The notes beneath the pieces were generated by a model. It saw only the letters and a list, made by a program, of their open reading frames with translations. It was not told the DNA's origin and made no database searches. The translations under genes were made by a program, and so were the position numbers. Positions 1,186-49,281 of a stretch of DNA of 64,000 nucleotides are shown here, piece after piece. This stretch comes from a virus: positions 1 to 64,000 of IMG/VR virus record IMGVR_UViG_3300045970_000046. One strand, given 5' to 3'. How positions within the stretch are numbered: position 1 is the first letter of the stretch; each line of letters opens with the position of its first letter.

Positions 1186-1629
1186 ATGACCTCGAAAAGA
1201 TGCCATAAGTGCGGTGTAACTAAGCCTGTCTCTGAATTCCATAAGCGCCGAATGTCGAAAGATGGGCTTAGTTACATCTGTATTGAATGTAATAAGAAGA
1301 AAGTAAAGGAGTATTATCAATTAGATAAGGTTAACCATAAAAAGAGAGTTAAAGCTAATAAAGAACGTACGATAATTTTAAATCGAAGCTTAATGTTAAA
1401 ATACCTTGCAAGTCATCCTTGTATAGATTGTGGTGAAACAGATATAAGAGTATTAGAATTCGATCATGTAAGAGGAAAGACCCATAATATAGCTAATATG
1501 ATGTACGACTATACATGGTCTAGTATTTTAGAAGAAATAGCTAAATGTGAAGTACGGTGCGCTAATGATCATAAGCGCCGTACTTATGTAGATTCTTATC
1601 GAGATTTAGACCTGTCGCCTAATGGTTAA
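1186..1629 (+). CDS. HNH endonuclease (homing-type)
   Basis: CxxC pairs, LEFDHV...KCEVRCANDH; AT-rich relative to flanks. Confidence 0.85.
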   Translation: MTSKRCHKCGVTKPVSEFHKRRMSKDGLSYICIECNKKKVKEYYQLDKVNHKKRVKANKERTIILNRSLMLKYLASHPCIDCGETDIRVLEFDHVRGKTHNIANMMYDYTWSSILEEIAKCEVRCANDHKRRTYVDSYRDLDLSPNG

Positions 1630-1679
1630 GGCCCTCGACTTATAATCGTTTGATTTGGGTTCGACTCCCAACAGGTCTA
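1608..1679 (+). tRNA. tRNA-Ile (anticodon TAT)
   Basis: Acceptor AGACCTG/CAGGTCT, D arm GCCT/AGGC, loop CT-TAT-AA, T arm TTGGG-TTCGACT-CCCAA; two mismatches in anticodon stem; no encoded CCA. Confidence 0.85.
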
Positions 1680-1757
1680 TTTGGATCCAATGTACGTAGA
1701 GCATGGTATAGTAGATCCGTGTAGGGTGCTGTACCCTCAAAGTGTGGGAGGTATCAC

Positions 1758-1919
1758 ATGAAGCAACTGAGCGTTAGGTTAGTGTTCTTCAACGCTGTAC
1801 GGCTGATGCTAGTCCGTTCCCCTAGATGCCACAAATATATGGAGGTATCCACTTGGATCTTCCGTAGGTTACAGAACCGACCGATTGTGTGGCTATACAC
1901 GGAGAATATCCATGACTAA
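1758..1919 (+). CDS. small hypothetical protein (53 aa, not in ORF track)
   Basis: GGAGG RBS, MKQLSVRL...NIHD*, overlaps next start. Confidence 0.5.
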   Translation: MKQLSVRLVFFNAVRLMLVRSPRCHKYMEVSTWIFRRLQNRPIVWLYTENIHD

Positions 1920-2217
1920 TCCAGAAGTTTATCCGCTGACCGCAGAGTTAGAAGTCTTTCTGAATGACCGGCTACAACAGAATAATCTACGTGGCCTAGA
2001 TTATATGGCCGCGGAGAAGCTGGTCCATACTCTTACGCATACATTTGGTGAGTATGAGCACGGTACGGCGGAAGCCATCAACTGCATGCCCGATGAGTTT
2101 ATCGAGCGTTTCAAAGACGATACGGAGCTCGGTACTCTAGTAGCCCTTAAGACCCTCAAGGCGGTGTACGAGGATATTTTCCTCTGTCACATTCTTGATA
2201 TGTCGGGGGTGGACTAA
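1912..2217 (+). CDS. hypothetical protein
   Basis: GGAG RBS before ATG 1912. Confidence 0.7.
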   Translation: MTNPEVYPLTAELEVFLNDRLQQNNLRGLDYMAAEKLVHTLTHTFGEYEHGTAEAINCMPDEFIERFKDDTELGTLVALKTLKAVYEDIFLCHILDMSGVD

Positions 2218-2492
2218 TGTATAAATTCATAGGAGGTTCTCTCTTTGGTGCTACGTTGGGCTGTCTCACGACGGCCCTTGTACTTTCCGGACTAGCCCAG
2301 ACAACCGCAGAACGTGTAAGGCGCCTTCCGATGGATAGTGCGCTTTTGAAAAGAATGGACGAGCTCGAGGTAAAGCTGGTAGCTAAAGCTAAGCCCAACT
2401 GCTTCGTCGTGGATAAGTTCGATATAGCTATCTACCCTATCGAGAACCTCGGTAAGCACAGGGTTGAAAAGCCCGAACTAGTCCGTAATTAA
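2217..2492 (+). CDS. hypothetical membrane/exported protein
   Basis: N-terminal hydrophobic segment; TAATG coupling. Confidence 0.65.
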   Translation: MYKFIGGSLFGATLGCLTTALVLSGLAQTTAERVRRLPMDSALLKRMDELEVKLVAKAKPNCFVVDKFDIAIYPIENLGKHRVEKPELVRN

Positions 2493-2505
2493 TCAATACC
2501 TACAA

Positions 2506-2565
2506 GGCCGAAATCCCCCGTATTTGCGGGGGATCTACCCGTTTATGCGGGTACTGACGAGGGCC
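2506..2565 (+). ncRNA. type II hammerhead ribozyme
   Basis: GGCC-GAAA-[TCCCCCG/CGGGGGA]-TC-[TACCCG/CGGGTA]-CTGACGA-G-GGCC; predicted cut after AUC at 2535. Confidence 0.85.
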
Positions 2566-2592
2566 AGAAGATCCCCGTGGAAAGGACACGAG

Positions 2593-2994
2593 ATGGACAA
2601 CGATCAGGAACGAGATACACAGGAAGAGCAGTATTGGAAGAACCACTGCAGTGAATGCGACTGCTCACCCTGTACCTGTGCAAGCGAGGAGAAGAGCTTT
2701 TTCTGTGTAGCTATTTATCTACACGATAAAGAGTTTGGTGGTCCGGAGGAGGGTGGCTGGTGGTATTCAACCTACGAGCCGGTTAAGTCCTACGCCCATA
2801 TGACCCGGGTATATAAAACTCATAACGAGGCTGTACTGTATCAATTTAAACTTAAGAAAGAGATTATCCTACTGGGACTGAACGACGACCGTCGTTCGGT
2901 AGACTCAGTTCTTTCAGACGGTGAGGTTGTAGCTTACATCACGGAGAACGAGTATCCGTGTCATCTCCCAAAGGAGCGCCCTTACTATGAGTAA
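2593..2994 (+). CDS. hypothetical phage protein
   Basis: AAAGGA RBS; FGGPEEGGWWY motif; start moved from 2524. Confidence 0.75.
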   Translation: MDNDQERDTQEEQYWKNHCSECDCSPCTCASEEKSFFCVAIYLHDKEFGGPEEGGWWYSTYEPVKSYAHMTRVYKTHNEAVLYQFKLKKEIILLGLNDDRRSVDSVLSDGEVVAYITENEYPCHLPKERPYYE

Positions 2995-3178
2995 GACTGT
3001 ACCATGCGGTGAGTGTCCTAGTTGTGAGCAAGGACATACCTATAGGTGCTCCAGTCCTGTCGGTGTATGCGAATGCGGACACCCTATGGTTATCGAGCCA
3101 CCGAATTGTGCCCCGATTCCCCACTGTGAACTCTGCCATACGTGGCATTACAAAGGGCATCCATGCAAGCCATTGTAA
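2987..3178 (+). CDS. small Cys/His-rich protein
   Basis: multiple CxxC; overlaps both neighbours in operon. Confidence 0.6.
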   Translation: MSKTVPCGECPSCEQGHTYRCSSPVGVCECGHPMVIEPPNCAPIPHCELCHTWHYKGHPCKPL

Positions 3179-3414
3179 CGAGGTTCATGCCTCCTACTAA
3201 TCACCGAAACCCGCGTATCAAAGTTGAAGCGGCAGCTGGGAAGATGATTGTTAACTGGGTGGATCAGTTAAGTATAGAAGAGAATCACCGTAGTGCGGCT
3301 ATGAAGTTTGTCGTGAAGTTTGATTGGCCTAGGAATGACTGGTATCAGGGAACGATGCCGGATGGAACGGGTGATGTATTCGTGTGTATTCCACGCAAAG
3401 GGAGCTATCGGTGA
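3163..3414 (+). CDS. hypothetical phage protein
   Basis: MQAIVTRFMPPTNHRNPRIKV start typical of a recurrent phage family. Confidence 0.75.
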   Translation: MQAIVTRFMPPTNHRNPRIKVEAAAGKMIVNWVDQLSIEENHRSAAMKFVVKFDWPRNDWYQGTMPDGTGDVFVCIPRKGSYR

Positions 3415-3683
3415 AAATCACAGACACGTTCAAGGGTTATCCTCTTATCGCTTGGTGCAACACCGAAGTCCAAAGTGATAATAAGAAATGCGGCTTTTTT
3501 CTTGTTCAGACAAGAGAGACAACGGGTCCAAGCTATGGTCAGCAGGCCGAGTGGTGCGTCGCCTTCTATCGAGATGGTGACCACGAGTGGACTACTGGTT
3601 ACTACACGCAGTCTCTGAAGGATGCGTACGAGAATTTCATCAAGCGTACTATCGGAATGATGAGGCGTCCAAATGAGGACTAA
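3411..3683 (+). CDS. hypothetical protein
   Basis: GTGA coupling, GGGAG RBS. Confidence 0.65.
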   Translation: MKITDTFKGYPLIAWCNTEVQSDNKKCGFFLVQTRETTGPSYGQQAEWCVAFYRDGDHEWTTGYYTQSLKDAYENFIKRTIGMMRRPNED

Positions 3684-4092
3684 CTTCGACGGGGATAGTG
3701 ACTACGGTGACAATGAAGATGTTGGAATGGACCACGGTCCAGATGGTGAGGACGATGAGGTACCACACACGTTCCGTCGGGGATGTCCACACTGCAGTAA
3801 GCCTTCGAGTCGGTGTGGTTGTGAGCTCGACGGACCGGACGATATCGATGGCGTTGGGTTTGCAGATCCGGGTGGAGGTTCGGCTTTGCGAGCGGCTACG
3901 TGCTTCAATCCGCGGGATAGGCCGTGCCCTAGCTGTCATCGGGCCGGAATGCTGACACGAATTGACGTACAGCGTGGTTATCAGTGTGACTACTGCGCTA
4001 ATGCGGCAGAGCGTGGAGACGATAGTAACGAGTACGACTGTGGTGGTGCTGCGGGTGGATGTCAGATCTGCAAGGAAAACGAGGAGAACTAA
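3673..4092 (+). CDS. acidic, Cys-rich hypothetical protein
   Basis: several CxxC motifs. Confidence 0.7.
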   Translation: MRTNFDGDSDYGDNEDVGMDHGPDGEDDEVPHTFRRGCPHCSKPSSRCGCELDGPDDIDGVGFADPGGGSALRAATCFNPRDRPCPSCHRAGMLTRIDVQRGYQCDYCANAAERGDDSNEYDCGGAAGGCQICKENEEN

Positions 4093-4379
4093 TGAAAGCC
4101 GTTATTCCGTCTGAGGTAGGAATCGCAACAGCTACAAATCGTCCGCAATTCCTTAGTATTCTAAAGCAGCGTATCCTAGCTGGTGATAAGGTCCTTTCTC
4201 CAGAAGAGGGGTTAGGACTACTCGAGTCTCTCTCCGAGTGTATGGAGCTACTCGAGGGACAGCGCCGTATCGTAAGGGGCTACGAGGCCCAGATCGACAC
4301 GGTACGTTTTCTACATGATGAGTATACGACGAAGCACGCGGAACTGAGCGTGGCTCTTAGCGATCTTTTCAAGAATTAA
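4092..4379 (+). CDS. hypothetical coiled-coil protein
   Basis: TAATG coupling, GAGGAG RBS. Confidence 0.7.
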   Translation: MKAVIPSEVGIATATNRPQFLSILKQRILAGDKVLSPEEGLGLLESLSECMELLEGQRRIVRGYEAQIDTVRFLHDEYTTKHAELSVALSDLFKN

Positions 4380-4430
4380 AACTCTCGATCACATGAAGCG
4401 GAGGGATCCAAATAGTAAGGATGGATCACA

Positions 4431-4459
4431 TTGACACGGTACGTCGTACGAAGTATGTT
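4431..4459 (+). promoter_or_regulatory. sigma70-type promoter
   Basis: TTGACA-17 bp-TATGTT in intergenic gap upstream of 4536. Confidence 0.7.
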
Positions 4460-4535
4460 CCCCCTGTAGTTAACGCGGTTCAAAAATGACGAGGACCGCT
4501 TCACCTAAACCGTAGCTTCATATAAGAGGAAAATC

Positions 4536-4952
4536 ATGTCTGAGACCCCTGTTGTTGAGACCACGAAGAACGAGTCTGTTTCCCCTACCGCGGCGGCCGA
4601 GGCTGCTTCGGTTCCTGCCGTTGTGGCCGAGAAGGTCAAGAAGGTTAAGGAGCCGAAGGCCCCCCGCGTGACCCTCGCCAAGCAGAACGGCGTTACCCGT
4701 CCGGGTGGCGGGCTGACTGGTAAGGTCTGGGAGTGCGCTGATCGGATCTCGGCGGCCGTTGGTGCCCCGGCCCCGCGTAAGCAGGTGATGGAGGAGCTGG
4801 TGGCCGCTGGCGTCAATCAGGCGACCATCGCTACCCAGTACGGCCGGTGGCGCAAGTTCAACGGCCTTGGCAAGGAGAAGGCCCCTGTCGCTGACGCCGC
4901 CGCGGCTCCTGCTGCCGGTGGTGACACGACTGTAGAGACCCCTAAGGCGTAA
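4536..4952 (+). CDS. putative DNA-binding (HTH-like) protein, paralog of 6237
   Basis: TGKVWECAD...RKQV..E...GVNQATIATQYGRW; Ala/Lys-rich flanks. Confidence 0.7.
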   Translation: MSETPVVETTKNESVSPTAAAEAASVPAVVAEKVKKVKEPKAPRVTLAKQNGVTRPGGGLTGKVWECADRISAAVGAPAPRKQVMEELVAAGVNQATIATQYGRWRKFNGLGKEKAPVADAAAAPAAGGDTTVETPKA

Positions 4953-4990
4953 TTCGCCCACGCCCGCCTAGTTACGCTTAGGTGAGTCGG

Positions 4991-5026
4991 AGGAGCCCTT
5001 TCAGAAATGGAGGGGCTCCTTTTTTA
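4991..5026 (+). terminator. intrinsic terminator
   Basis: AGGAGCCCTT...AGGGGCTCCT followed by T run. Confidence 0.8.
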
Positions 5027-5028
5027 TT

Positions 5029-5099
5029 GGCCCCATCGTCTATCGGTAGGACGCCACCCTTTCAAGGTGAGAAGCCGGGTTCGACTCCCGGTGGGGTCA
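5029..5099 (+). tRNA. tRNA-Glu (TTC)
   Basis: GGCCCCA/TGGGGTC acceptor, CT-TTC-AA loop, CCGGG-TTCGACT-CCCGG. Confidence 0.95.
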
Positions 5100-5102
5100 T
5101 TC

Positions 5103-5184
5103 GGATGAGTGGCGGAATTGGCAGACGCTCGAGACTTAGGATCTCGTGACGAAAGTCGTGAGGGTTCGATTCCCTCCTCATCCA
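5103..5184 (+). tRNA. tRNA-Leu (TAG)
   Basis: GGATGAG/CTCATCC, CT-TAG-GA loop, long variable arm. Confidence 0.95.
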
Positions 5185-5186
5185 TT

Positions 5187-5293
5187 CGGGGGTACCCACG
5201 GCGCAAGCTATTCCCTCGTCAGGCGAGTACGTTAGCATCGAGGCCCGTAATTAAGCCACCTCGAAACGGGGCTTTCGCCTTCTCCCCCGTCCA
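5187..5293 (+). ncRNA. unassigned structured RNA between tRNAs
   Basis: CGGGGG/CCCCCG closing stem then TCCA; GGCG-C-AAGC/GCTT-T-CGCC; further internal helices. Confidence 0.45.
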
Positions 5294-5352
5294 CTCCATT
5301 AACGTATAAGCCGAATAATAGTCCCTAGAATAAGCTAGGGCTGTGGTCTTTC

Positions 5353-5423
5353 TGGGGTATCGTCTAATGGCAGGACGTCAGATTTTGGATCTGACTATGG
5401 AGGTTCGACCCCTTCTACCCCAA
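5353..5423 (+). tRNA. tRNA-Gln (TTG)
   Basis: TGGGGTA/TACCCCA, TCAGA-TT-TTG-GA-TCTGA, T arm. Confidence 0.95.
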
Positions 5424-5452
5424 TGCAGTTCACAATGTGGAAAGGAGCACAT

Positions 5453-5656
5453 ATGACACAAGAGGAGAAACTAGTCTACCTCCGTAGCCAGATTGTTTGT
5501 ATGGAAGCGGAGATAAAAGGTATGGAGGTAGAAAACCTAGAGCGTGAGCGTAACGGTTATGCTCCAGCTTACGACGGTAAGGCGTTCTACGAGCTAAGCT
5601 CCAAGTATGGCCTTAATCATAACCAAGTAATCGGTTATCTTACAGATAGGAGGTAG
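5453..5656 (+). CDS. hypothetical protein
   Basis: AAGGAG RBS before ATG 5453. Confidence 0.7.
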   Translation: MTQEEKLVYLRSQIVCMEAEIKGMEVENLERERNGYAPAYDGKAFYELSSKYGLNHNQVIGYLTDRR

Positions 5657-5657
5657 T

Positions 5658-6086
5658 GTGGGCGTCCGAACTGTAGGCATGTGGAATAATAGCTACTCCA
5701 TCGACGGCCTCTCTGATATCCGTTGGTTAGTGACTTGGGTCGGAGGCCATATAGCTGTTATCGAGGATACCTATGTAGTTAGTAAGGAGCCATTCACACA
5801 AGAGGAAGCGAACCAGTCGTACAACGAGTGGTTACGTGAAATGGACGCCGCTGTTCCCGAGGAACCCGCAGTGTGGCTATTCAACGACGTTATTTACCGT
5901 GTCGTTGAAGGCAAAGATAAGAACGCCAAAGAGTTCTTCTGCCAAAACCTAGCCGACGCTGATTTAGACTGGGAAACGTATGACGAGTATGAAAGGGCTC
6001 GTGATTTGAAGTTAGGGGAACAGTTCCAGAGTGAAGACGGTCACCTCTGGATTACGCGTATTCTAACGCCGTTTCCGGATGAGTAA
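5658..6086 (+). CDS. hypothetical acidic protein
   Basis: AGGAGG RBS, ORF. Confidence 0.7.
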   Translation: MGVRTVGMWNNSYSIDGLSDIRWLVTWVGGHIAVIEDTYVVSKEPFTQEEANQSYNEWLREMDAAVPEEPAVWLFNDVIYRVVEGKDKNAKEFFCQNLADADLDWETYDEYERARDLKLGEQFQSEDGHLWITRILTPFPDE

Positions 6087-6127
6087 GCCCCATTCAGTAG
6101 TTTTTTGATCCCAGTGCAAATTCTCCC

Positions 6128-6156
6128 TTGCAACACAATACGGGGTATAATATCCT
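6128..6156 (+). promoter_or_regulatory. probable promoter
   Basis: TTGCAA at 6128, TATAAT at 6146 and TATCCT at 17-bp spacing; register ambiguous. Confidence 0.5.
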
Positions 6157-6236
6157 GGGACGCATCAAAGGCATCTATAGGTCGTGCACGTAGTGGGCGC
6201 AACAATATGGACCCCTATTACAGGAGGGCGTAGCTA

Positions 6237-6923
6237 ATGATCGAAGAGACCAAGCCGAGGCGCGAAGGTAAGGTTTACGAGCTGAAAAAGTCCGCTGTTC
6301 GTGCTGCTAGGGAGGACGGACTCGAAGAGGGTCAGTTCACCGTTAAGCAGACGAATAAGGGTTTTGCTTACGAGAAGAGTGGTAGTAAGAAGAACGGTGA
6401 GGAGAAGGTAAAGGCCGCTCCCCCTAAGCCGAAGGTTGAGGATAAGCCAAAGGCTGAAGTTAAGAAGTCCGTCAAGAAGAAGGACCCCATTCAGGAACAG
6501 CTTGATAAGGACCTAACCGAGGCTAGTGAGGCTCGTAAGGCTGAACGGGCCCGTATCGCGGCAGAAACTCCCCCAATTCCGGAAGTCACTACCAAGGTTC
6601 CGGTCCCGGAGGTTCGGACTAAGTCGGCCACGTCAACGGAGGGTGGGCCTCCTCCGATGCGTACAGCCGTTGCTGAACGTGTTAAGGTTGTGAACGACGG
6701 TAAGTTGCACAAGTCCCTCCTCGAGTCTCCGACCAAGCGTGTTTGGTCTATAGCCGAAGAGCTTGTGGCTGCTAATCCAGCTATTACCCGTAAGCAGGTT
6801 ATAGCTGAGTGTGAGAGGCTTGGTATCGCCTATTACACCGCCCGTACTCAGTATCAGCAGTGGTTGACGACTCTCCGTGAGTCTAAGGCTAATGCCGGTA
6901 AGGTTCACGTGAAGGAGAAGTAG
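6237..6923 (+). CDS. Lys/Glu-rich protein with C-terminal HTH-like domain, paralog of 4536
   Basis: TKRVWSIAE...RKQVIAE...GIAYYTARTQYQQW. Confidence 0.75.
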   Translation: MIEETKPRREGKVYELKKSAVRAAREDGLEEGQFTVKQTNKGFAYEKSGSKKNGEEKVKAAPPKPKVEDKPKAEVKKSVKKKDPIQEQLDKDLTEASEARKAERARIAAETPPIPEVTTKVPVPEVRTKSATSTEGGPPPMRTAVAERVKVVNDGKLHKSLLESPTKRVWSIAEELVAANPAITRKQVIAECERLGIAYYTARTQYQQWLTTLRESKANAGKVHVKEK

Positions 6924-6950
6924 TTGCACCGGGGTCGTAAGACCCCGTCT

Positions 6951-7033
6951 GGGGCCGTGGTGGAATGGTAGACGCAGGGGACTTAAAATCCCCAGATCGC
7001 GAGATCGTCCCGGTTCGAGTCCGGGCGGCCCTA
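6951..7033 (+). tRNA. tRNA-Leu (TAA)
   Basis: GGGGCCG/CGGCCCT, GGGGA-CT-TAA-AA-TCCCC, variable arm. Confidence 0.95.
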
Positions 7034-7049
7034 ATGCAGTAGAAGTGTC

Positions 7050-7344
7050 GGGCCTGAACTGGTTTCGACAGGGAACCGAAAGTAGTAGATGCGTGCCGTG
7101 GTTGGTCAGCAGGCCACGTAAAAAGCAGACCAAACAGAGAAGCGAACGAGCCCATGGCTCTGCTAGCTGTAGCGTAAGTTACACTAGCCGTTGTACCGGA
7201 AGGACCTCGAGTACCGGATACAACGTCATACACGAGGATCGTAGTTAGTACCGTATCAAAGATGTACCGGCTCCGGTAGAGCTACGCACGTAGTATCTGC
7301 TATACTAGATTTTCTGGACCGGGGTTCGATTCCCCGCAGGTCCA
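7050..7344 (+). ncRNA. ssrA: tmRNA
   Basis: 5' GGGCCTG-AACTGGTTTCGAC; 3' GACCGGGG-TTCGATT-CCCCG-CAGGTCC-A with G3.U wobble; pk1; tag ORF 7142-7177 ANEPMALLAVA*. Confidence 0.93.
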
Positions 7345-40124: not shown

Positions 40125-41441
40125 TTAACCCGGGAGTAAACCAGGAAGCTGATTATTAATCAGGAAGTTCAAGGCGTCAATAGTAGCTTGGTCTGTAGTA
40201 CCATTCAGGACTATAGCAGCGTATTCGCTAATAGCCTTACGTGTCTGGAAAACTTCCATTGTTGCCTGAATCGTAATATACTGCCCTATCTTACTTGCAA
40301 CCTGAACACTCCCTGGAAGGAAACGAGCCGTACATTCAGAAGGAGTGGAAGAATCTAGTATTAGATCAACCTGGAACGGTAGAGAACAATCTCGAAGTCT
40401 ACCGTAGAGTAACCAGAAAATTTTATAGTCTGTGGGATTTAGCTTCCATTTAGCCGTTACAATAGACGAGGAATTTTGGATACCGGGACTATACCGACTT
40501 AGACCAATTCCATATTCGATACTGATAACTTCGTCGTCTTTATCGGTAACGGTATATCCGTCCTGCAGTGGAACAAGGTATAGCTTCCGTGCCGGAGAAT
40601 CCGTAGCTACTGAAGCATGACCCGAAGCTGAACCACCTAGACCAACAGGCCCGTAGGTTCGAATATCGTCTTTAGTGGAAGCATGACCCGCGGCTGTACC
40701 TGTAAGGTCTACGGTACGAGATGTATGAGGTAAGGCCGTAGCTCCGGCATGACCTCCGGCGGTACCTCCCAAAGGAACAGGACCGGTAGTCTCTCCGGTT
40801 ACATCCGCATGTCCGCCAGACGTACCCCCTAGTAGAACGTCGGTCTGTAGCCCTGTGGCCACAGCACCCGCGTGACCAGAAGCTACCCCTGAAAGTGGAA
40901 TACTGCTTGGGTTCGTCCCGAAATAACCGGTAGGTACAATTTGAATGGCAGCTGTACCTCCGTCTGTACCTACGAAGTGGATAGGTGCTAGTTTAAGTGA
41001 AACCGTTGAATTATCAGTGCTAGTAAACGAGAGTAATGTACCAGAGGTATCTAGTACATCGGCCGTAGCCGTTATATCTACTACTGTACTATGACCGGAG
41101 GCTGTACCGGATAGCCGTGTAGGTACAGTATACGAGAGTACGGACGTTAAAGCACCGCGACCACCAGCGGTACCGGCTAGTGAAGTAGGCCCTGTACTCG
41201 TCACACCGGCTGTTCCGGAACCATGACCGGCAGACACACCACCTAATGACGTCGCTGTTGGAAGTTGAGTTGTTACCGTAGGACTAGATACAGTCGCCTG
41301 TCCGGAAGCGGTCCCGGAAAGCGGTATACGTATAGATTCTACCGTCACGTCATTAACAGTAATGGCTCCAGATCCGGGTACTACCCGTAAGGATAGAGTT
41401 GCATTACCTAGCGGTAACGTGAGGGTAGTTATAACCTTCAT
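40125..41441 (-). CDS. Gly/Thr/Ser-repeat stalk fused to distal-tail-like domain
   Basis: L.G.A.GHA repeats; C-terminal ~150 aa aligns by eye with 48919..49281. Confidence 0.75.
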   Translation of the reverse strand: MKVITTLTLPLGNATLSLRVVPGSGAITVNDVTVESIRIPLSGTASGQATVSSPTVTTQLPTATSLGGVSAGHGSGTAGVTSTGPTSLAGTAGGRGALTSVLSYTVPTRLSGTASGHSTVVDITATADVLDTSGTLLSFTSTDNSTVSLKLAPIHFVGTDGGTAAIQIVPTGYFGTNPSSIPLSGVASGHAGAVATGLQTDVLLGGTSGGHADVTGETTGPVPLGGTAGGHAGATALPHTSRTVDLTGTAAGHASTKDDIRTYGPVGLGGSASGHASVATDSPARKLYLVPLQDGYTVTDKDDEVISIEYGIGLSRYSPGIQNSSSIVTAKWKLNPTDYKIFWLLYGRLRDCSLPFQVDLILDSSTPSECTARFLPGSVQVASKIGQYITIQATMEVFQTRKAISEYAAIVLNGTTDQATIDALNFLINNQLPGLLPG

Positions 41442-43060
41442 GGAGTAGCCGGAAGTGTAAGTGTATCTACTACAACACCGTTAACTAGAACTTCCACCTG
41501 ACCACCTGTCGGAGAAGTGGCGTCAAGCTGCAACTGTAGGGGACGAGTCAGAGAATTCACAGTTTGAATATCCAGACCGGTGTCAGGGTTTAACGGTGCA
41601 TTCAATGATATGGTACCACCGTCTACCACAATACAATGCTGATTTGAAACCACCCCTACCTGAGAATCAACATCGGCCAGGTAGTCTCTAGTTCCAACCA
41701 GACCACCTACAGTTCTGGCTACTACGCGTACCTGCCAGTAATCGTCACCCCATGAGGTTAATTGATAGGCGTTATCGGTCCATCTGGAAACAGGTGGACC
41801 CTGATATACGCGTGTACCGTTAAGCCATAGCTCCACTTGGTTTACTGTATCGGAAGAACAGAAAGCTCCGAGGTCAACACTTACAGTACCACGAACTTTT
41901 ATATGAAGCAACCCTTCGGAATGCGTATCTTCGATCCCAATATCGTTATGAGCAACATTGTACCAGTCATCTGTATGCGTCTCCCCACGCCCCTTGAGGC
42001 GTAGATACGGAAAGACTTTATTGCTATTTCCTGGGAGCGTTGATTCAGCCTTCAGTACGGCGAGTTCTGCGTCAACTACACCGACCCCTGCGGCAGTATT
42101 GTAAAACATATCTACTTTCCATCCCTTTTTAGGTCTGGTAGCTGTCGAGATTAGTATATTTCTAACCTGTTCATTTGTTAGTGAGGGATTTTTCGCCCAC
42201 ACAAGTTGAGCAACACCACCAACCACAGAGGCGATATTAATCAGATTTGGGTTCCAAAAACCTACTGTTCCAGGAAAGGGAAACTTACCGTTTTCGTGAA
42301 TAGCCGAAATTCCCATATGGATCTGAGAGGCCAGTATGTCTACACGAGGTCCGTACTGGCCTCGGTAGGTGGATCCGGGATGCAGCATACTAAAGACACA
42401 CCGGGCCTCATCGTCAATCCTAACTCCTCCAACACATAGAACGTGCGGGGCATCACTAGGGCTGTAGGCGGTAGCTGTTGGATTAGCTATAAATGTTTCA
42501 TCGTCTCCAATATAAGAAACGACTAGGCATCCAGCCGACCACGCATTGGCAACGGCAAGGGCTACAGCCGAGCCGGTAACGGTAGGACCAGCCGGGGCTG
42601 TTGGATGGACGGTGACGATTACACGAGCGCCTGATGCAACGAGAAAATCTATCCCAGCTGCCATCGCCGAGGCACTTACACCCATGGCGAGCTGAATCCC
42701 ATCTACTGCCGTCGCTAGAGTAGCTTCCGGGGCAACACCGTATAACCGTCCGGTTCCACCCTTACCTACAAGAGTAACAGCCGGATTGATAGAGTAGCTA
42801 CCTCCACCACGGCCACTATTGATATTAGTCCCGCCGGTGGAGATATTCCGAGCAGCTATAACCTTACCTGTTAGTTCAGGGGTGTTGGGAAAGAAGTTAG
42901 GGTAGGATCCAGCCTCGCCAGGATATTCAGCACATATAAGTCCAATAGGAAAGGTTGCCGCTCCCGTACCTATTGTCCACGCCTCGTATACATGGGACCG
43001 CTGGAACGTATGCTGCCTACCAAACAAGGTGCTCTGATATGGGAGCTTATACCGGATCAT
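41438..43060 (-). CDS. S8 subtilase-like pseudoprotease
   Basis: YGVAPEA, YGPRVDILA, V.GVA.LVWA.NP.LT..QV..IL..TA, but no DSG/HGT/GTS motifs; GAAGGAGGAG RBS. Confidence 0.8.
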   Translation of the reverse strand: MIRYKLPYQSTLFGRQHTFQRSHVYEAWTIGTGAATFPIGLICAEYPGEAGSYPNFFPNTPELTGKVIAARNISTGGTNINSGRGGGSYSINPAVTLVGKGGTGRLYGVAPEATLATAVDGIQLAMGVSASAMAAGIDFLVASGARVIVTVHPTAPAGPTVTGSAVALAVANAWSAGCLVVSYIGDDETFIANPTATAYSPSDAPHVLCVGGVRIDDEARCVFSMLHPGSTYRGQYGPRVDILASQIHMGISAIHENGKFPFPGTVGFWNPNLINIASVVGGVAQLVWAKNPSLTNEQVRNILISTATRPKKGWKVDMFYNTAAGVGVVDAELAVLKAESTLPGNSNKVFPYLRLKGRGETHTDDWYNVAHNDIGIEDTHSEGLLHIKVRGTVSVDLGAFCSSDTVNQVELWLNGTRVYQGPPVSRWTDNAYQLTSWGDDYWQVRVVARTVGGLVGTRDYLADVDSQVGVVSNQHCIVVDGGTISLNAPLNPDTGLDIQTVNSLTRPLQLQLDATSPTGGQVEVLVNGVVVDTLTLPATP

Positions 43061-45473
43061 AAACTCCTCCTTCAATGTTACCGGAGATATCAATCCCGTA
43101 GAATTGTAGCTTTCCCGACTGGGGCGTAAGCGGAGCAAGATACGTGCTCCACGCTCCAGAACCCCACCGGTACCTAATTGTTACAGGAGCATTCTCACTA
43201 ACAGACGACAGTATGATAGTACCACGGGTGGCGGTAGGCCACGAAACCGTGGTAAGTGGAGCAGCAGCTGCAGAGGTGTGACCAATAACGTCGACATACT
43301 CCTGCTCGACGGTAAGCGTAGAGGTTCTAGCAACTAATTTTAGAAGATTCCCAGCTAGAAGTCCGGAGTTCAAAGGGATTAGCGAGTCCCATGTAGTTCT
43401 AGCCCCTCCTTGGTAAACCATTGTAGATCCGGCCCATAATTCCAAGGAGGTAATAGGATCCGAAGAATAGGCTATGAGCTCTACATATATAGTTCCATGG
43501 AGATGAACGGTAGGAACCCCCGAGCTCCAAACTACAGCATCACTGATAAGAATGGGAATATACCGCCCCATGATATCTCTTTTAAAGAAATTGCAGTAAG
43601 GAAAGATATGTCCTGCAAACTCCGGGACTAATGACAGCGCCTTGCTAACGGCCTTTCCTGCATTCCAAATACCCGGTAACTCAGGAAATAATGTTGTAAA
43701 ATCTGGATTCTGAGGCTTATCCCAAGTATCTTTAGCTATCTGACAGATCTGAAGCCCCGTTAAATCCATGTTAGCTGAACCGATTAGGGCACAAATTCCC
43801 ACTGAAAAGGGGGTAGCAGAAGACGTACCGTTAAAATAGGTGTAGTCCACTAGAGCGTTGTTTGGATTAGAAGGAGTGAACCACTCGAAATCGCTATCTA
43901 TAGCTCCGGACGTTGCGATCCCAGTTCCAGCCTGGTGGTAGACAGAGGCTAGAATCTGATGTCCATGAGCCACCGCATTAACCTTAGGACCGTAATTTGA
44001 ATAGCAAGCACGCTCGTCAAGCCGGGTGGTCTCTAGACATCCAACAGACAAAAATCCATATTCCTTACAAAGATTTCCGGGACTTCCCGACATGCCCGTA
44101 GAGTAATTACACGCGGCAAATAGGGCTGCGTCGCCGCGATCTCGGAGCAGGTCGAATGTTGTCCTATACTCCGCCAATAATCCACCGGTAGAAGTGTACG
44201 CAGAGCCCCAGGAATTATTCGAAATTTTAGCCCCCAACAGGGAACCCATTATCAGGCCCTCTGTTAGAGCCACAATGGTGACATAAGTTTCTCCCGGGGC
44301 TAGTTCCGTCCGCCAAGAGAAACCATTACAGCTAAACAAGGAGCATTCAGGAGCGACGCCAACAGGCCCGGCCTTTAGAGGTGAGGATCCTACGTAGTCC
44401 GGTTTGTTAGCGTTAGCCAAAATGACACCGGAGCAGCAGGTCCCGTGAGTTGCGGATCCAGCCGAATTATCCGTGCTGGGCCCGAATACCCCCTTACCGG
44501 GATTAAAACGGATTACTTTCTTTCCGGCAAACGCAGGCCACTGCTCTGCCGCAGTTGGGTAAAGGGGGCCTCCAGGGACTCCTAGGGTCGGATCACTAGC
44601 GGGACCCGTAAATGTAGAGTTAATTATTAATCCAGAATCATTTACCGTGACTAAGAAATCCGGGTGCCCCATCGTATACTTCCACGCCGAAAAGACATCC
44701 GACCGTAAGTGAGAATACTGTCTGGGAAGAGCCGCATCGCTGGCCCCATGGTATTTGCGTTTGGAAGTTTGATAGTTAGGGAGCCTAACATTAGTCGTAG
44801 TAGCCGAAGCGTGGGCTGTATCTACAGATGTTCTTGGCCCAGAGGAGGAAGCCCGCAGCGAAATATAACGGCCTTGTTTGGTACCTTCTACAGAAATTGT
44901 AGATGAGGGAACAGGCCCTGCACTCGGTTGCACCATACTCCATATACCTAACCCGTGGTTGAGTGCGTCAGGTCCTAACAAAATATCTGTAGATAGCGGA
45001 GGACCTACAGGCGTAGTCCACCACGTACTCAGAGTATCATAGTCATAACTAAACTCGTAATTATGGGCTAATAACAGAACAAGGCTGTTCTGCCCTAAAG
45101 TCGTAATTGAAGGAACAACTAGATCCGTGTATACAGTGATGTCGGGACTTGTGGCCGTAGCGAGCGAACCCACAACCTCTATCGGGGCTGTGGGATCACA
45201 ATCTCTATAGGCCGCCATAATAATATAGCCTGTACTATGGGCTATGTCGACGTTTTCATCAGTTAATACTTTGTAGCAAATAGCGAAGAAAGTTGAAGTT
45301 CCTCCCGCAGAATTTGAAGCTCCTGGGACTAGGGTCCAACCTGTAGGAGCCGAGCTAGTTCCGGTGATGAAGGCTATAACTACATCACCAGCTTCGAGAC
45401 CCGAGGGTACACCTTCCTTAGTGGGATCATCCCCACGGTACTTCCCTGTACTTACAAGATATGGGATTCTCAT
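43047..45473 (-). CDS. S8 (subtilisin-family) serine protease with extra N- and C-terminal domains
   Basis: VNDSG (D279), HGTCCSG (H343), NNSWG, AACN, NGTSSATP (S551). Confidence 0.92.
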   Translation of the reverse strand: MRIPYLVSTGKYRGDDPTKEGVPSGLEAGDVVIAFITGTSSAPTGWTLVPGASNSAGGTSTFFAICYKVLTDENVDIAHSTGYIIMAAYRDCDPTAPIEVVGSLATATSPDITVYTDLVVPSITTLGQNSLVLLLAHNYEFSYDYDTLSTWWTTPVGPPLSTDILLGPDALNHGLGIWSMVQPSAGPVPSSTISVEGTKQGRYISLRASSSGPRTSVDTAHASATTTNVRLPNYQTSKRKYHGASDAALPRQYSHLRSDVFSAWKYTMGHPDFLVTVNDSGLIINSTFTGPASDPTLGVPGGPLYPTAAEQWPAFAGKKVIRFNPGKGVFGPSTDNSAGSATHGTCCSGVILANANKPDYVGSSPLKAGPVGVAPECSLFSCNGFSWRTELAPGETYVTIVALTEGLIMGSLLGAKISNNSWGSAYTSTGGLLAEYRTTFDLLRDRGDAALFAACNYSTGMSGSPGNLCKEYGFLSVGCLETTRLDERACYSNYGPKVNAVAHGHQILASVYHQAGTGIATSGAIDSDFEWFTPSNPNNALVDYTYFNGTSSATPFSVGICALIGSANMDLTGLQICQIAKDTWDKPQNPDFTTLFPELPGIWNAGKAVSKALSLVPEFAGHIFPYCNFFKRDIMGRYIPILISDAVVWSSGVPTVHLHGTIYVELIAYSSDPITSLELWAGSTMVYQGGARTTWDSLIPLNSGLLAGNLLKLVARTSTLTVEQEYVDVIGHTSAAAAPLTTVSWPTATRGTIILSSVSENAPVTIRYRWGSGAWSTYLAPLTPQSGKLQFYGIDISGNIEGGVYDPV

Positions 45474-45871
45474 TAGGTGAACCGAAAAGACGGATTAGAT
45501 ACTCGTAAGATATCTCCAGTATCACTCATCAGCCTTGTCTTATGGCCTAGTTCTAAAATGGCGATTAAGGCTCCGGAGGTTCCGGAGGCAACCGTGACAA
45601 GTCCGATATACCGGATAGGTACGGCGGCTGTAAATCCAGTAAATTCAAAGTTCCCCGAGCACGTAAACTGGCCTGCAACAACAGTCATATTCAACTGTGG
45701 ACAATTAATTCGAGAGTATGTCCCAGTTACGGCAGTAACTTCCGCCATATTCGCCAACGTGGTAGTATCGGATCTATCCGTTAGAGCCGCTAAATAAATA
45801 CCGCCCGGCAAGGACGCGATAAGTGCAAGACTTAGGGCCTGAGAACCCTCGATAGGAATTACAACGGCCAT
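45473..45871 (-). CDS. small virion beta-sandwich protein (paralog of 48319 and 62170)
   Basis: YLAAL...AEV....Y.R...F.G...GL...G.L. Confidence 0.7.
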   Translation of the reverse strand: MAVVIPIEGSQALSLALIASLPGGIYLAALTDRSDTTTLANMAEVTAVTGTYSRINCPQLNMTVVAGQFTCSGNFEFTGFTAAVPIRYIGLVTVASGTSGALIAILELGHKTRLMSDTGDILRVSNPSFRFT

Positions 45872-46110
45872 TATTGTGTCTCCACTAATGACTCGAACCA
45901 GACATTGGCCACAGCAGGGTGGGCTTCATAACGAAGGATTGCCGTGGATACGTTTGCGGTACCGACAAAAACCTCTAACACCATCGCGTTCGGATACATA
46001 TTTAGCGTACGTCCCCCACACTCCTGAACTACACATAGACCTAGATCCTGGTCCCAATACTTCAGTCGTACCATCAATCTATCTAGTAGTATAGGGAGGG
46101 CCATATCCAT
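45871..46110 (-). CDS. stand-alone S8 pro-domain / inhibitor I9-like protein
   Basis: DRLMVRLK...GG...VLEV...AILRYEAHPAVANVWFE resembles subtilase propeptide pattern. Confidence 0.55.
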   Translation of the reverse strand: MDMALPILLDRLMVRLKYWDQDLGLCVVQECGGRTLNMYPNAMVLEVFVGTANVSTAILRYEAHPAVANVWFESLVETQ

Positions 46111-46112
46111 AC

Positions 46113-47108
46113 CTAGTATGATAAGCCACCTAGTTTAATGTCGTAAATTAGTCCGGATCCGAAGAGGTATAAGAACGTGCTCGCCGGAGTAGGCCAAGCA
46201 CCAGCCGTATTTAAGGTTACGTTTTGAATCCCATCTATGAAAGATAAAGTAGCACTCGTTCCCAGTCGGAATTCTATCCTGTATAGTTTATTTACCAACG
46301 GAGTTGGAACTAGATTAATTTGTTCTAAACCACCAGCTACACTAATACCAGACCAAGTCCCTAGCTCAGAGTCGTACCCAGCAGAGAATCCGTTTGTATT
46401 GGATAATAGAGTCTGCAAGCTTGCGGCGGTAGTATAAGTGCTTCCAGACAGCAAGGAAAATAGTCCGGAGCCATTGATACTATTCGTGGTCCTAGCGGCG
46501 CACCTAAATTCGAGATACCAAGGAGCGTCCTGCATTCCGGTAATACTAGCCTTAATAACGTCCGCGCCAGCCATGGTGACTATACCAGCCGAAACCGTAG
46601 GGGCACCTGCTACAATAGAGAACTGACCTAGAGTATTGGATGCAAAATCTTCATAGAGGACAACGCTGGGAGTGGTTTGAATAGTTAGAGTACGAGGACT
46701 CGCGAATAAGGCCGAAATATTACCAGCCGCGTCTTTGGCCCATGGGTAGAACGTTACGGATCCACGACCCTCCGCAATCCAGGAAGTTGGCACAGTAGCT
46801 ACCCACTTAGGATCTGCGGGGGACGGTTTAGTAGCGGATTCTGTAATTAAGTATCCTGCTATACCGCCAGCATGCGTTGCGTTAAGATTGTTAATCAGAA
46901 TACGAGCCCCGAGATGGGCTGTGTCATTGGCGTAGAGATTAAACGCATTCATTGAGGGAAGAGTATCTTCCACCGTAAAGGACCTACCGGAGACTACCAC
47001 CGTACCGTTTACTTTCATATCAACAGACTGAGCACCCCCGGCCATAGCTACATCCGGAATGGACCAATTTCCTGCCCCGTCAGCCGTAGTGGACCCAAGT
47101 AAAGCCAT
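46113..47108 (-). CDS. Ig-like + lectin-like domain protein
   Basis: GYLITES..P...W...P........YPWAKDAAGN.S; N-terminal half Ig domain. Confidence 0.75.
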   Translation of the reverse strand: MALLGSTTADGAGNWSIPDVAMAGGAQSVDMKVNGTVVVSGRSFTVEDTLPSMNAFNLYANDTAHLGARILINNLNATHAGGIAGYLITESATKPSPADPKWVATVPTSWIAEGRGSVTFYPWAKDAAGNISALFASPRTLTIQTTPSVVLYEDFASNTLGQFSIVAGAPTVSAGIVTMAGADVIKASITGMQDAPWYLEFRCAARTTNSINGSGLFSLLSGSTYTTAASLQTLLSNTNGFSAGYDSELGTWSGISVAGGLEQINLVPTPLVNKLYRIEFRLGTSATLSFIDGIQNVTLNTAGAWPTPASTFLYLFGSGLIYDIKLGGLSY

Positions 47109-47110
47109 AG

Positions 47111-48112
47111 CTATGTCCCCGTATCGTAAATAGTAACAGTTGATCCGGCCGCCGCGGTACCCGAGAACGTAACGGAGGCCGATGTAGTCTGACCAGCGGT
47201 CGGTGTTGCAAGTGTGTTCGAAACCGAACCACCTGAAATACTGACGGTTGAGGTTGCCCCCGCAATCCCAGCTCCGCTTCCCGCGATAGGCGCCGGAGCC
47301 CCCGTCTGGGTTCCGCTGCCACCAGAGCCAAGGCCTCCAGCCGAACCACCAAGAGATACTGTAGTAGCTGGTGCACTGGTAGTATCGGCCTGACCACCGG
47401 CAGCCCCGGAGAGGGCCGAGTCTACGATAACCGCACCGGCCGAATGTATCTCAATCGTCGCGTTAGGAACGACGACGCCGCTGAATGTAACCAAGGCCCC
47501 AACAGTAGACCCTTCAACCGGGAATTCCATAGACGCATCGGAGCCCGTCGATAGAGTCCCAAAAGATCCAGCCTGACCAGCGGCGGTACCACCCTGTGGA
47601 CCAGAAGTTGCCGCGGTTCCCTGTCCACCGGCGTGCCCCACGGAGGTCCCAGAGAGAGGAACAACCTGAGACAACGGGGCCGTAGCACCGGCCCGACCAC
47701 CAGCCGTAGCTTGTAACGGAGTTTGACCCGGTGTTGTTGTAGATATCGGACCTAGTTCGTTACCGTGGCCACCCGCTGTACCACCTAGGCCAGTAGAAAC
47801 ACCAAGAGCGGCGGTGGTTCCCCCTAAACCACCTGCCGCGCCTGTTGTTTTCCGTTCAGTGGATAGAATCCCACTTACATCTGCGTGACCCGACGTTGTT
47901 CCACCAGCTCCACCAGTGTCTAGTTGAGCACTAACGGTGGCCCTACCCGCAGCCGTTGCTTCTAGTATAAGTCCGAAGGGTAAAGGTGATTCCCAATAAC
48001 CTGAACTGTTGGCCTGAACAGGAGTAAGAGCCTGGCCGGCGACGGTAGGCGTCACAAAAGCGTTTGGAGTGGTTGAACCCCAAACCTTTACTCCACCAAT
48101 CTGAACAGGCAC
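47111..48112 (-). CDS. Gly/Ala/Thr-repeat protein with Ig-like segments
   Basis: L.GT.GG.A repeats; VTFSG motifs; GGAGG RBS. Confidence 0.75.
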   Translation of the reverse strand: MPVQIGGVKVWGSTTPNAFVTPTVAGQALTPVQANSSGYWESPLPFGLILEATAAGRATVSAQLDTGGAGGTTSGHADVSGILSTERKTTGAAGGLGGTTAALGVSTGLGGTAGGHGNELGPISTTTPGQTPLQATAGGRAGATAPLSQVVPLSGTSVGHAGGQGTAATSGPQGGTAAGQAGSFGTLSTGSDASMEFPVEGSTVGALVTFSGVVVPNATIEIHSAGAVIVDSALSGAAGGQADTTSAPATTVSLGGSAGGLGSGGSGTQTGAPAPIAGSGAGIAGATSTVSISGGSVSNTLATPTAGQTTSASVTFSGTAAAGSTVTIYDTGT

Positions 48113-48127
48113 GAAAACCTCCGGAAA

Positions 48128-48307
48128 CTACTTCGTACCGGTAGAACTAGCCGCGCGGGCCGTACCAGATAACGGAGTAACTTTTCCGGTAGTCTTCTCC
48201 TTCTGACCTGCGTTACTGGCCCCCTTAGCATCACCGCTTAACTTAGTGGGAGGAGTTTGAACACATGAACAAAGGACGACTACTAGAGCCACTAGAAGGA
48301 TCTTCAT
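48128..48307 (-). CDS. 59-aa lipoprotein-like ORF (not in ORF track)
   Basis: MKILLVALVVVLCSC; carries LSG.A.G/LSGTA repeat; fills gap. Confidence 0.6.
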   Translation of the reverse strand: MKILLVALVVVLCSCVQTPPTKLSGDAKGASNAGQKEKTTGKVTPLSGTARAASSTGTK

Positions 48308-48318
48308 AGTGGCACCGA

Positions 48319-48891
48319 TTACTGCTCTGTAACGTGAAGCGCCCCTGCCGTAAACGACGCCGTCGAGTTCTGCGTAACGGCTACAGGGGCGTTATTCACA
48401 GCACCCCAGTAGAGTAGGTTACCGGCGGTAGCTGCATCGTAAATCCCAAAGCACTGAACGGACCACGAAGTACCGCTGCTGTTAGTCCAGGCGGCGCTAC
48501 CGGAAATGGAACCGGCATTAACGTACTCGTCGGTATTCGTGTAGGTATTGCAGTTACCGGTACCGGAACCAGTGCAGCAGGTAAACGGCGCCTGGCTAGT
48601 GGTGCACGCACCGTTGGTCGCGTGTGTCCAACCGGTACCATTAGCGATAGCCGCCGAACGAGTAGTATATCCGGGTTGCGAACCGCTATTAAATTCAACT
48701 CCGGCGGTACCAGCCGCAGGGCACGTCGAGAATAACCCGACATAGGTATTGACCGGAGCCGAGAACGCCGTATTACCGAAAATCTCACCAAGCACCTTAG
48801 CCGAAAGATACGAATACTTCCCACCGGCCACGGCTAACAGCGGAAGAACTAGGGCGAGGGCAACAACTGCGAACTTCTTATTAAACTTCAT
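48319..48891 (-). CDS. virion-type beta-sandwich protein with signal peptide and Cys-rich insert
   Basis: MKFNKK-hydrophobic-AVA; YVGLF..P...G.E...GY; GIYDAATAGNLL; GAAGGAG RBS. Confidence 0.75.
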   Translation of the reverse strand: MKFNKKFAVVALALVLPLLAVAGGKYSYLSAKVLGEIFGNTAFSAPVNTYVGLFSTCPAAGTAGVEFNSGSQPGYTTRSAAIANGTGWTHATNGACTTSQAPFTCCTGSGTGNCNTYTNTDEYVNAGSISGSAAWTNSSGTSWSVQCFGIYDAATAGNLLYWGAVNNAPVAVTQNSTASFTAGALHVTEQ

Positions 48892-48918
48892 CGGATACTC
48901 CTTCAAGCGGTGGAACAG

Positions 48919-49281
48919 TTAGGAAACGATAGCTAAAGTAGCCTTAACAAGATACTGATCTCCGTGAATCTCCGCCAACTTCATCGTACCTTTTACGAAT
49001 TGTACAGTATGCTCAGATATTGTAGGATCGTCTACCAATAAATTGATCCGAAAAGCTGATGCCGTAAACTGGACTAACCTATAAAACGCACGAATATAAT
49101 CGTATTCTTGAGCATTACAATACCATGTAACGTCAATATGAGGCAATGTTTTATTTATAGGCTTAATTGAAGCCCTCCGGAATTTAGAGAAGCCTCCTTC
49201 AACAGCGAACTTTATTACATCAGCCTCAAATGTAATCCTATAACCTGATTCTTCCGGTGTAAGGTCTAGGGCTATAGACAT
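48919..49281 (-). CDS. distal tail (Dit/M-like) protein
   Basis: directly after tape measure gene; P...GY...V....GG.S.F...V.W...Y...FY. Confidence 0.75.
   Translation of the reverse strand: MSIALDLTPEESGYRITFEADVIKFAVEGGFSKFRRASIKPINKTLPHIDVTWYCNAQEYDYIRAFYRLVQFTASAFRINLLVDDPTISEHTVQFVKGTMKLAEIHGDQYLVKATLAIVS

Follow-up and report, generated by a model that had tools for sequence, protein, structure and literature searches.

An Ig-like domain divided between two adjacent fibre genes of an uncultured pond phage: a possible non-covalent joint in a rope-type fibre

How are two neighbouring virus genes to be read when a single protein domain lies across the border between them? The question is raised by a locus in the window analysed here, a stretch of 64,000 nucleotides that forms the first 64 kb of the 75,119-bp IMG/VR record IMGVR_UViG_3300045970_000046 (rated complete by CheckV); the source of the DNA is an uncultured pond phage. 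Two open reading frames (ORFs) are concerned, both on the minus strand, to which all coordinates below refer unless stated otherwise. ORF1 (47111..48112) has a GTG start behind GGAGG and a TAG stop and encodes a putative rope-type fibre protein of 333 amino acids (aa), whereas ORF2 (46113..47108) encodes 331 aa that probably form the distal part of the fibre. Between them they divide one bacterial immunoglobulin (Ig)-like domain. In the reading that fits best, to which we give a probability of roughly 0.45 on the strength of the sequence, the two coupled proteins would rebuild the Ig-like sandwich and thereby hold the lectin-tipped ORF2 protein on the ORF1 rope.

The junction GGGGACATAGCTATG (47106..47120) is compact. 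It reads ACG GGG ACA TAG CT ATG, with a run of four G at 47117-47120, the ORF1 stop codon at 47111-47113, a spacer of 2 nucleotides (nt) and the ORF2 start codon at 47106-47108. ORF1 ends in ...VTFSGTAAAGSTVTIYDTGT followed by TAG, and ORF2 begins at the ATG at 47108 with MALLGSTTADGAGNWSIP; the description of this border in the initial annotation, including the 2-nt spacer and the position of ORF2 in the -1 frame, is exact. The N-terminal half of the split domain (47114..47218) comprises ORF1 residues ~299-333 and the C-terminal half (46965..47108) ORF2 residues 1 to ~48.

That the two halves, once joined, make up one bacterial Ig-like domain had been proposed from the letters alone, and the proposal is borne out by Pfam, by intact repeats and by a hidden Markov model (HMM), all of which match across the break. 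The read-through of the junction matches Big_6 (PF17936; E 1e-4, 22.9 bits) over residues 16-65 and Big_13 (PF19077; E 2.7e-3, 18.6 bits) over residues 16-81, corresponding to profile positions 18-84 of 102; both matches span the break at residue 45/46, while neither the ORF1 half nor the ORF2 half has any Pfam match alone. Since these scores remain below the Pfam gathering cut-offs, a second and independent test was made with the repeats of a 1309-aa tandem-Ig protein, which came from an exhaustive HMMER search with ORF1. By BLASTP the read-through aligns end-to-end with intact repeats of this protein, e.g., over residues 4-94 with 38% identity (E 1e-8). In an HMM of 94 positions built from twelve of its intact repeats (hereafter the 12-repeat HMM), the ORF1 tail scores 25.3 bits (positions 9-41), the ORF2 head 4.8 bits (positions 46-76) and the joined sequence 36 bits (positions 9-76). 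The four positions left uncovered by the halves (42-45; consensus D-G-N-E) correspond to a turn between two strands, and the fission adds one surplus residue to ORF1 and two to ORF2. The object is thus a single Ig-like domain of the Big_13/Big_6 type, cut in a D/G/N-rich turn by a genuine frame change in the DNA. Neither the joined domain nor ORF1 has a match among the sequences of the PDB, and the 12-repeat HMM finds no other C-terminal half of this domain in the six-frame translation of the genome.

The frame change is present in the DNA itself. Contigs from the Logan collection, assembled independently from two pond-metagenome runs belonging to two studies, each cover the site in one piece, with mean word depths of 132 and 16, and show no indel and not a single differing letter. 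The check for an indel error called for at the outset, made on these two independent run contigs, therefore bears out the present sequence letter for letter; random assembly or sequencing error is excluded by this agreement, and heterogeneity is compatible with the contigs. Codon-usage scoring trained on the long genes of the phage favours the ORF1 frame up to ~47110 and the ORF2 frame beyond.

ORF2 also has the attributes of a separately expressed gene. Its own GGGG(A) Shine-Dalgarno (SD) site, noted earlier from the letters alone, was confirmed: the pairing energy with the anti-SD is -5.7 kcal/mol, the median over 51 genes being -5.8, and the ATG lies 2 nt past the ORF1 stop, as at other coupled borders of the operon. 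How readily such an arrangement arises by accident can be gauged from a simulation in which 14 long genes of the phage received 28,428 single-base deletions; a cut was counted as clean when the stop came within 2 codons, the start within 3 and the SD matched or surpassed that of ORF2 in strength. Only 0.48% of the deletions gave an equally clean cut, and 0.19% one with an ATG start. A fission so clean is what selection for separate expression of the downstream part would let through, not a typical dead lesion. As judged by HMM coverage, the two predicted, separately translated chains each carry an incomplete part of the beta-sandwich, and the two parts are complementary.

Regarding the architecture of the two proteins, ORF1 consists of an N-terminal beta domain, Gly/Thr/Ala-rich rope repeats of the pattern L-[SG]-G-T-x-x-G-[HQR]-[AG], an internal Ig N-half, further rope repeats and the C-terminal Ig N-half. 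The internal one (residues 194-233; 47414..47533), put forward in the initial annotation as a second orphan N-half, is a doubtful case: it matches the 12-repeat HMM over positions 10-49 only, with 12 bits and an independent E-value (i-E) of 0.017, and a rope repeat follows directly from residue 234. In ORF2, the Ig C-half is followed by a middle domain (residues ~50-146; 46671..46961; motif GYLITES...YPWAKDAAGN), which is a widespread Ig-like repeat common in bacterial surface proteins, and by a C-terminal domain (residues 146-331; 46116..46670). The latter is without sequence relatives in a search of 5.8 billion proteins. Because its ESM Atlas model resembles ConA-like, LamG and 3-keto-disaccharide-hydrolase jelly rolls, with template modelling (TM) scores of 0.68-0.78 normalised by the query, it is likely a sugar- or receptor-binding tip.

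These elements can be assembled into a mechanism. ORF1 would be the rope of a GP4-like beads-on-a-rope fibre, and ORF2 its distal part, made of an Ig-like domain and a ConA-like, probably sugar-binding tip. A small frame-shifting mutation would have created the cut, after which the two ORFs would be translated by coupling; the ORF2 head (~48 residues) and the ORF1 tail (~33 residues) would then fold together into one beta-sandwich, both sheets of which would mix strands from the two chains, and it is by this co-folding that ORF2 would stay on the fibre. Fold complementation between two subunits, one of the two possibilities originally raised, is the best fit to the coupled start, the clean cut in a D/G/N-rich turn, the precedents and a second border of the same kind; the interpretation as such is partly supported.

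The junction also bears traces of how it may have arisen. The stop codon of ORF1 and the start codon of ORF2 both lie within one copy (47104..47118) of a 15-nt direct repeat, of which the other copy, identical at 13 of the 15 positions, lies within the Ig C-half at a distance of 63 nt (21 codons) downstream and encodes DVAMA (47041..47055). The 10-mer TAGCTATGGC common to both copies occurs only these two times in the 75-kb genome, in the same orientation and in the same ORF2 frame. Read in the ORF2 frame, the junction copy would give DIAMA; the TAG of the ORF1 frame comes from it, and so does the ATG. Deleting 14 nt of it restores a single frame, ...TIYDTG-LLGSTTAD..., which scores in Pfam and in the 12-repeat HMM the same as a join obtained by a -1 shift. 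Owing to these equal scores two mutational histories remain: a 14-nt templated duplication may have introduced both stop and start at once, or, equally possible, an in-frame duplication of 15 nt was followed by the loss of one G from a run of five. Both histories make the cut a small mutation within a hairpin turn, and the local 15-nt repeat offers a concrete picture of gene fission in one mutational step. The G run at 47117-47120 doubles as the SD-like site and as the sole possible slip site of the junction. As to secondary structure, a perfect 10-nt palindrome, CATAGCTATG (47106-47115), which is found nowhere else in the genome, holds the stop of ORF1 and the start of ORF2. Paired with a near-copy 63 nt downstream, it can form a 10-bp stem covering the ORF2 start; the overall fold stability of the region is not above that of shuffles.

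A second rope protein, with a second candidate for a split sandwich beside it, is found farther down the operon. This paralogue of 438 aa (40125..41441) carries nine rope repeats and a Dit-like C-terminal domain, and its start overlaps the stop of the upstream gene for a 566-aa dead-protease paralogue (ATGA, 41438-41441). Six-frame translation of the whole genome turns up 13 copies of a Gly-rich repeat, G-[TSVG]-[AST]-x-G-[HQR]-[AGS], spaced at ~20-22 residues, all of them in ORF1 and in the 438-aa protein; both proteins are read as ropes on this pattern, and their repeats are likely docking sites for a gp80-like bead encoded in the same operon, although no likeness to the solved ropes was found at the sequence level in the PDB. 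A by-eye likeness of the split domain to the middle of the 438-aa rope was rejected (z ~0, not significant). When the border between the 566-aa and 438-aa genes is read through (flanks 41289-41575), an E-set match (PF16967, E 6.5e-4) extends across it, while the halves alone have none. A beta-sandwich thus seems to be split here too, with the pattern recurring next to the second rope protein. The motif TLTLP is present to either side of this border.

Several findings weigh against a joint of this kind. The joined domain stays under the gathering cut-offs of both Pfam families (22.9 vs 27.6 bits for Big_6 and 18.6 vs 27 bits for Big_13), the second split rests on one sub-threshold match, and single-sequence AlphaFold2 models of ORF1 and ORF2 were unusable, with predicted local distance difference test (pLDDT) values of 40 and 32. 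The two runs behind the Logan contigs may be the source samples of the record, and contigs hide minority alleles. The origin of the cut in a local repeat marks it as a mutation, possibly recent and merely tolerated. Finally, no collection searched held a relative of ORF1, or of the ends of ORF2, that was close enough for comparison. BLAST against phage DNA and proteins gave no usable relatives, nor did the 5.8-billion-protein search with ORF2, at near as well as longer lengths. Scans of IMG/VR with ORF2, the 132-aa, 120-aa and bead proteins led to a single locus, in which a distant Dit-like relative precedes an unrelated tailspike, and the metagenomes of JGI held relatives of the ORF2 middle domain only. 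The exhaustive HMMER search with ORF1 returned three weak tandem-Ig matches and nothing else, and the C-terminal part of the 566-aa protein, used as a query, had zero relatives. As a whole, the cassette from the 120-aa Dit-like protein to the Dit-like end of the 438-aa protein (40125-49281) is without sequence relatives in the phage, viral-contig, metagenome and protein collections, the exceptions being common domains only (S8, the surface-protein repeat and Dit).

Among the alternatives, the one that survives best is that of a tolerated or recent lesion: a mutation would have broken a single fibre gene, ORF1 would still serve as a rope, and ORF2, whether made or not, would be off the virion and decaying. 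A stop and a start lying in a local near-duplicate are indeed the mark of a mutation, other downstream tail proteins could bind the host, and the cassette being without relatives, long-term maintenance of the split is unsupported. However, a cut this clean, with its own ATG and SD, is expected from only ~0.5% of single-base deletions placed at random, the ORF2 frame is open over its full length and normal in codon usage, the same allele was assembled in two runs at good depth, and both half-domains still fit the family consensus well. We consider such a lesion unlikely, though a serious contender; should it be true, the finding would be an ordinary one.

Lower still in probability is a programmed or otherwise useful -1 slippage, the other possibility raised in the initial annotation. 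The tRNA-Gly would slip back one base from GGG on G_GGG to give ...TIYDTG-DIAMALLG..., and the fused ORF1-ORF2 protein would be the working fibre; a fused product of ~67 kDa with a trans-frame peptide across ...IYDTGDIAMALLG... would be the corresponding expectation. The site G_GGG does allow perfect re-pairing exactly where the frames must change, the Ig domain of the -1 product scores as well as any other join, phage Ig-like domains are often reached by frameshifting, and indels can be rescued when ribosomes slip at a low level on runs of G (PMC5009743). The ORF2 frame is moreover open for >100 codons upstream, but such a long open -1 frame probably follows from the Gly/Ala/Thr-rich composition. 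Against slippage, an X_XXY_YYZ heptamer is absent, and re-pairing of the A-site codon, ACA, is impossible in the -1 frame. A stimulatory RNA structure was rejected as well, since downstream folds of 63-141 nt do not exceed shuffled sequence in stability (z +0.98 to +1.63) and Rfam gave no match. The known cases shift ahead of a whole Ig domain and not within one (PMC5009743), the ATG and SD of ORF2 would be superfluous, and a slip site is wholly absent at the border between the 566-aa and 438-aa genes. As a programmed event, -1 frameshifting thus finds poor support, G_GGG being its only element; low-level slippage may nevertheless yield some fused protein.

Fold complementation could be taken further, to a plug-and-socket fibre in which two Ig N-half sockets of ORF1, the internal and the terminal one, would each be filled by an ORF2 plug, resulting in a branched rope with two lectin-tipped arms. 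The same trick would be used at the border of the 566-aa and 438-aa genes, and the split would have arisen by a one-step 14-nt templated duplication into the hairpin turn, as a simple route to gene fission. This elaboration is a speculative one, and we rate it improbable. A sequencing or assembly error in one uninterrupted gene is very improbable: a short run of G does lie at the break, and indels do occur in contigs assembled from metagenomes, but the independent k-mer contigs from the two runs are identical at every letter, a run of four G is short, and the extra 14 nt, if they are the cause, could not be produced by a read error. Stop-codon recoding or amber suppression was rejected, as stop-codon use across the genome is ordinary (TAA 59, TAG 28, TGA 20) and no suppressor is present among the five phage tRNAs.

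The surroundings of the locus are those of a structural operon. It opens with a 2126-aa tape-measure-like gene, followed by the genes for the 120-aa Dit-like protein, a 195-aa gp80-like protein, a 59-aa lipoprotein-like ORF and ORF1; after ORF1 come ORF2, two small ORFs, two S8 subtilase paralogues and the 438-aa protein with its Dit-like end. The 195-aa protein (48319..48906) is the putative bead of a chain-like fibre and is gp80-like by its matches to Pfam PF23140 (E 6.2e-17) and to chain a of PDB 8JOU (E 6.7e-7), gp80 being the bead of phage GP4 (PMC13730344). Its N-terminus carries a hydrophobic leader, MKFNKKFAVVALALVLPLLAVAGG, a feature one would not expect of a virion component that is put together in the cytoplasm. 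In the region 48113-48307, the 59-aa ORF ends in TAG, in frame with ORF1, of which the GTG start lies 15 nt further on; the codons in between, FPEVF, resemble the beginning of the first beta domain of ORF1, and the 59-aa ORF terminates in a rope-like stretch, PLSGTARAA. This border may reflect a further, old break within a single gene, or else the resemblance is due to chance. On the plus strand, five phage tRNA genes lie within 1607-7344 (Ile-TAT, Glu-TTC, Leu-TAG, Gln-TTG and Leu-TAA), and ARAGORN calls a 'tmRNA' with an unusual tag peptide at 7050-7344, a candidate only, which may be false.

How does the joint proposed here compare with those of characterized fibres? In chaperone-usher pili, an incomplete Ig-like fold is completed by the donor strand of the next subunit, resulting in a very stable non-covalent fibre joint. 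The pili are bacterial fibres, donate a single strand and need a chaperone, whereas the phage fibre would involve the donation of about three strands, and a chaperone is not known for it.

Among phages, frameshifting is a familiar way of adding Ig-like domains to structural proteins, as in T3 gene 10, in Lactobacillus phage A2 and in the Listeria phages A118, A500 and PSA (PMC5009743). As in these phages, an Ig-like domain of a virion protein lies here across a frame change. In contrast to the present locus, the shift in those phages occurs upstream of a complete domain, at a recognisable shift site, and the downstream frame is without a start of its own.

With regards to the fibre as a whole, the closest likeness is to the podophages GP4, VP1 and A1002, in which dimers of gp80-like beads sit on a 'rope' by beta-sheet augmentation (PMC13730344). 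A gp80-like bead is likewise encoded near putative Gly-rich repeat rope proteins in the pond phage. Unlike in those podophages, however, tape-measure and Dit-like genes are present, as in a long-tailed phage, and the bead has an N-terminal hydrophobic leader. In A1002 the rope ends in an Ig-like domain, and the nozzle is split, a beta-propeller being common to gp39 and gp42 by strand complementation (PMC13730344); in the present case the divided domain is Ig-like and lies distally, where the rope ends.

The nearest precedent for the joint itself is found in phage Tuc2009, where crystallography has established that the C-terminal hairpin of BppU completes a sheet of domain 2 of BppA, in a composite that resembles a titin Ig domain (PMC4742702). 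There, as would be the case for ORF1 and ORF2, a composite Ig-like sandwich is built from separately encoded tail proteins, and the Tuc2009 joint holds a carbohydrate-binding accessory protein on the virion. ORF1 and ORF2 are unrelated to BppU and BppA. In Tuc2009, moreover, a hairpin of 25 residues completes one sheet of a mostly whole domain and the structure has been solved, whereas the cut considered here falls near the middle of the domain (~33 + 48 residues) and is known from sequence alone. If the halves do reassemble, they would constitute a natural split Ig-like domain that joins, without a covalent bond, the parts of a rope fibre of a new type, carried by a long-tailed phage, and would add to the few solved examples, Tuc2009 and A1002. 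In phage annotation, it would then be unwise to 'correct' gene borders inside beta-sandwich domains as if they were frameshifts. Joints of this kind are already known from these systems; what would be new is that a Big_13-type domain is cut near its middle within a rope fibre, and that the mutational origin of the cut is visible.

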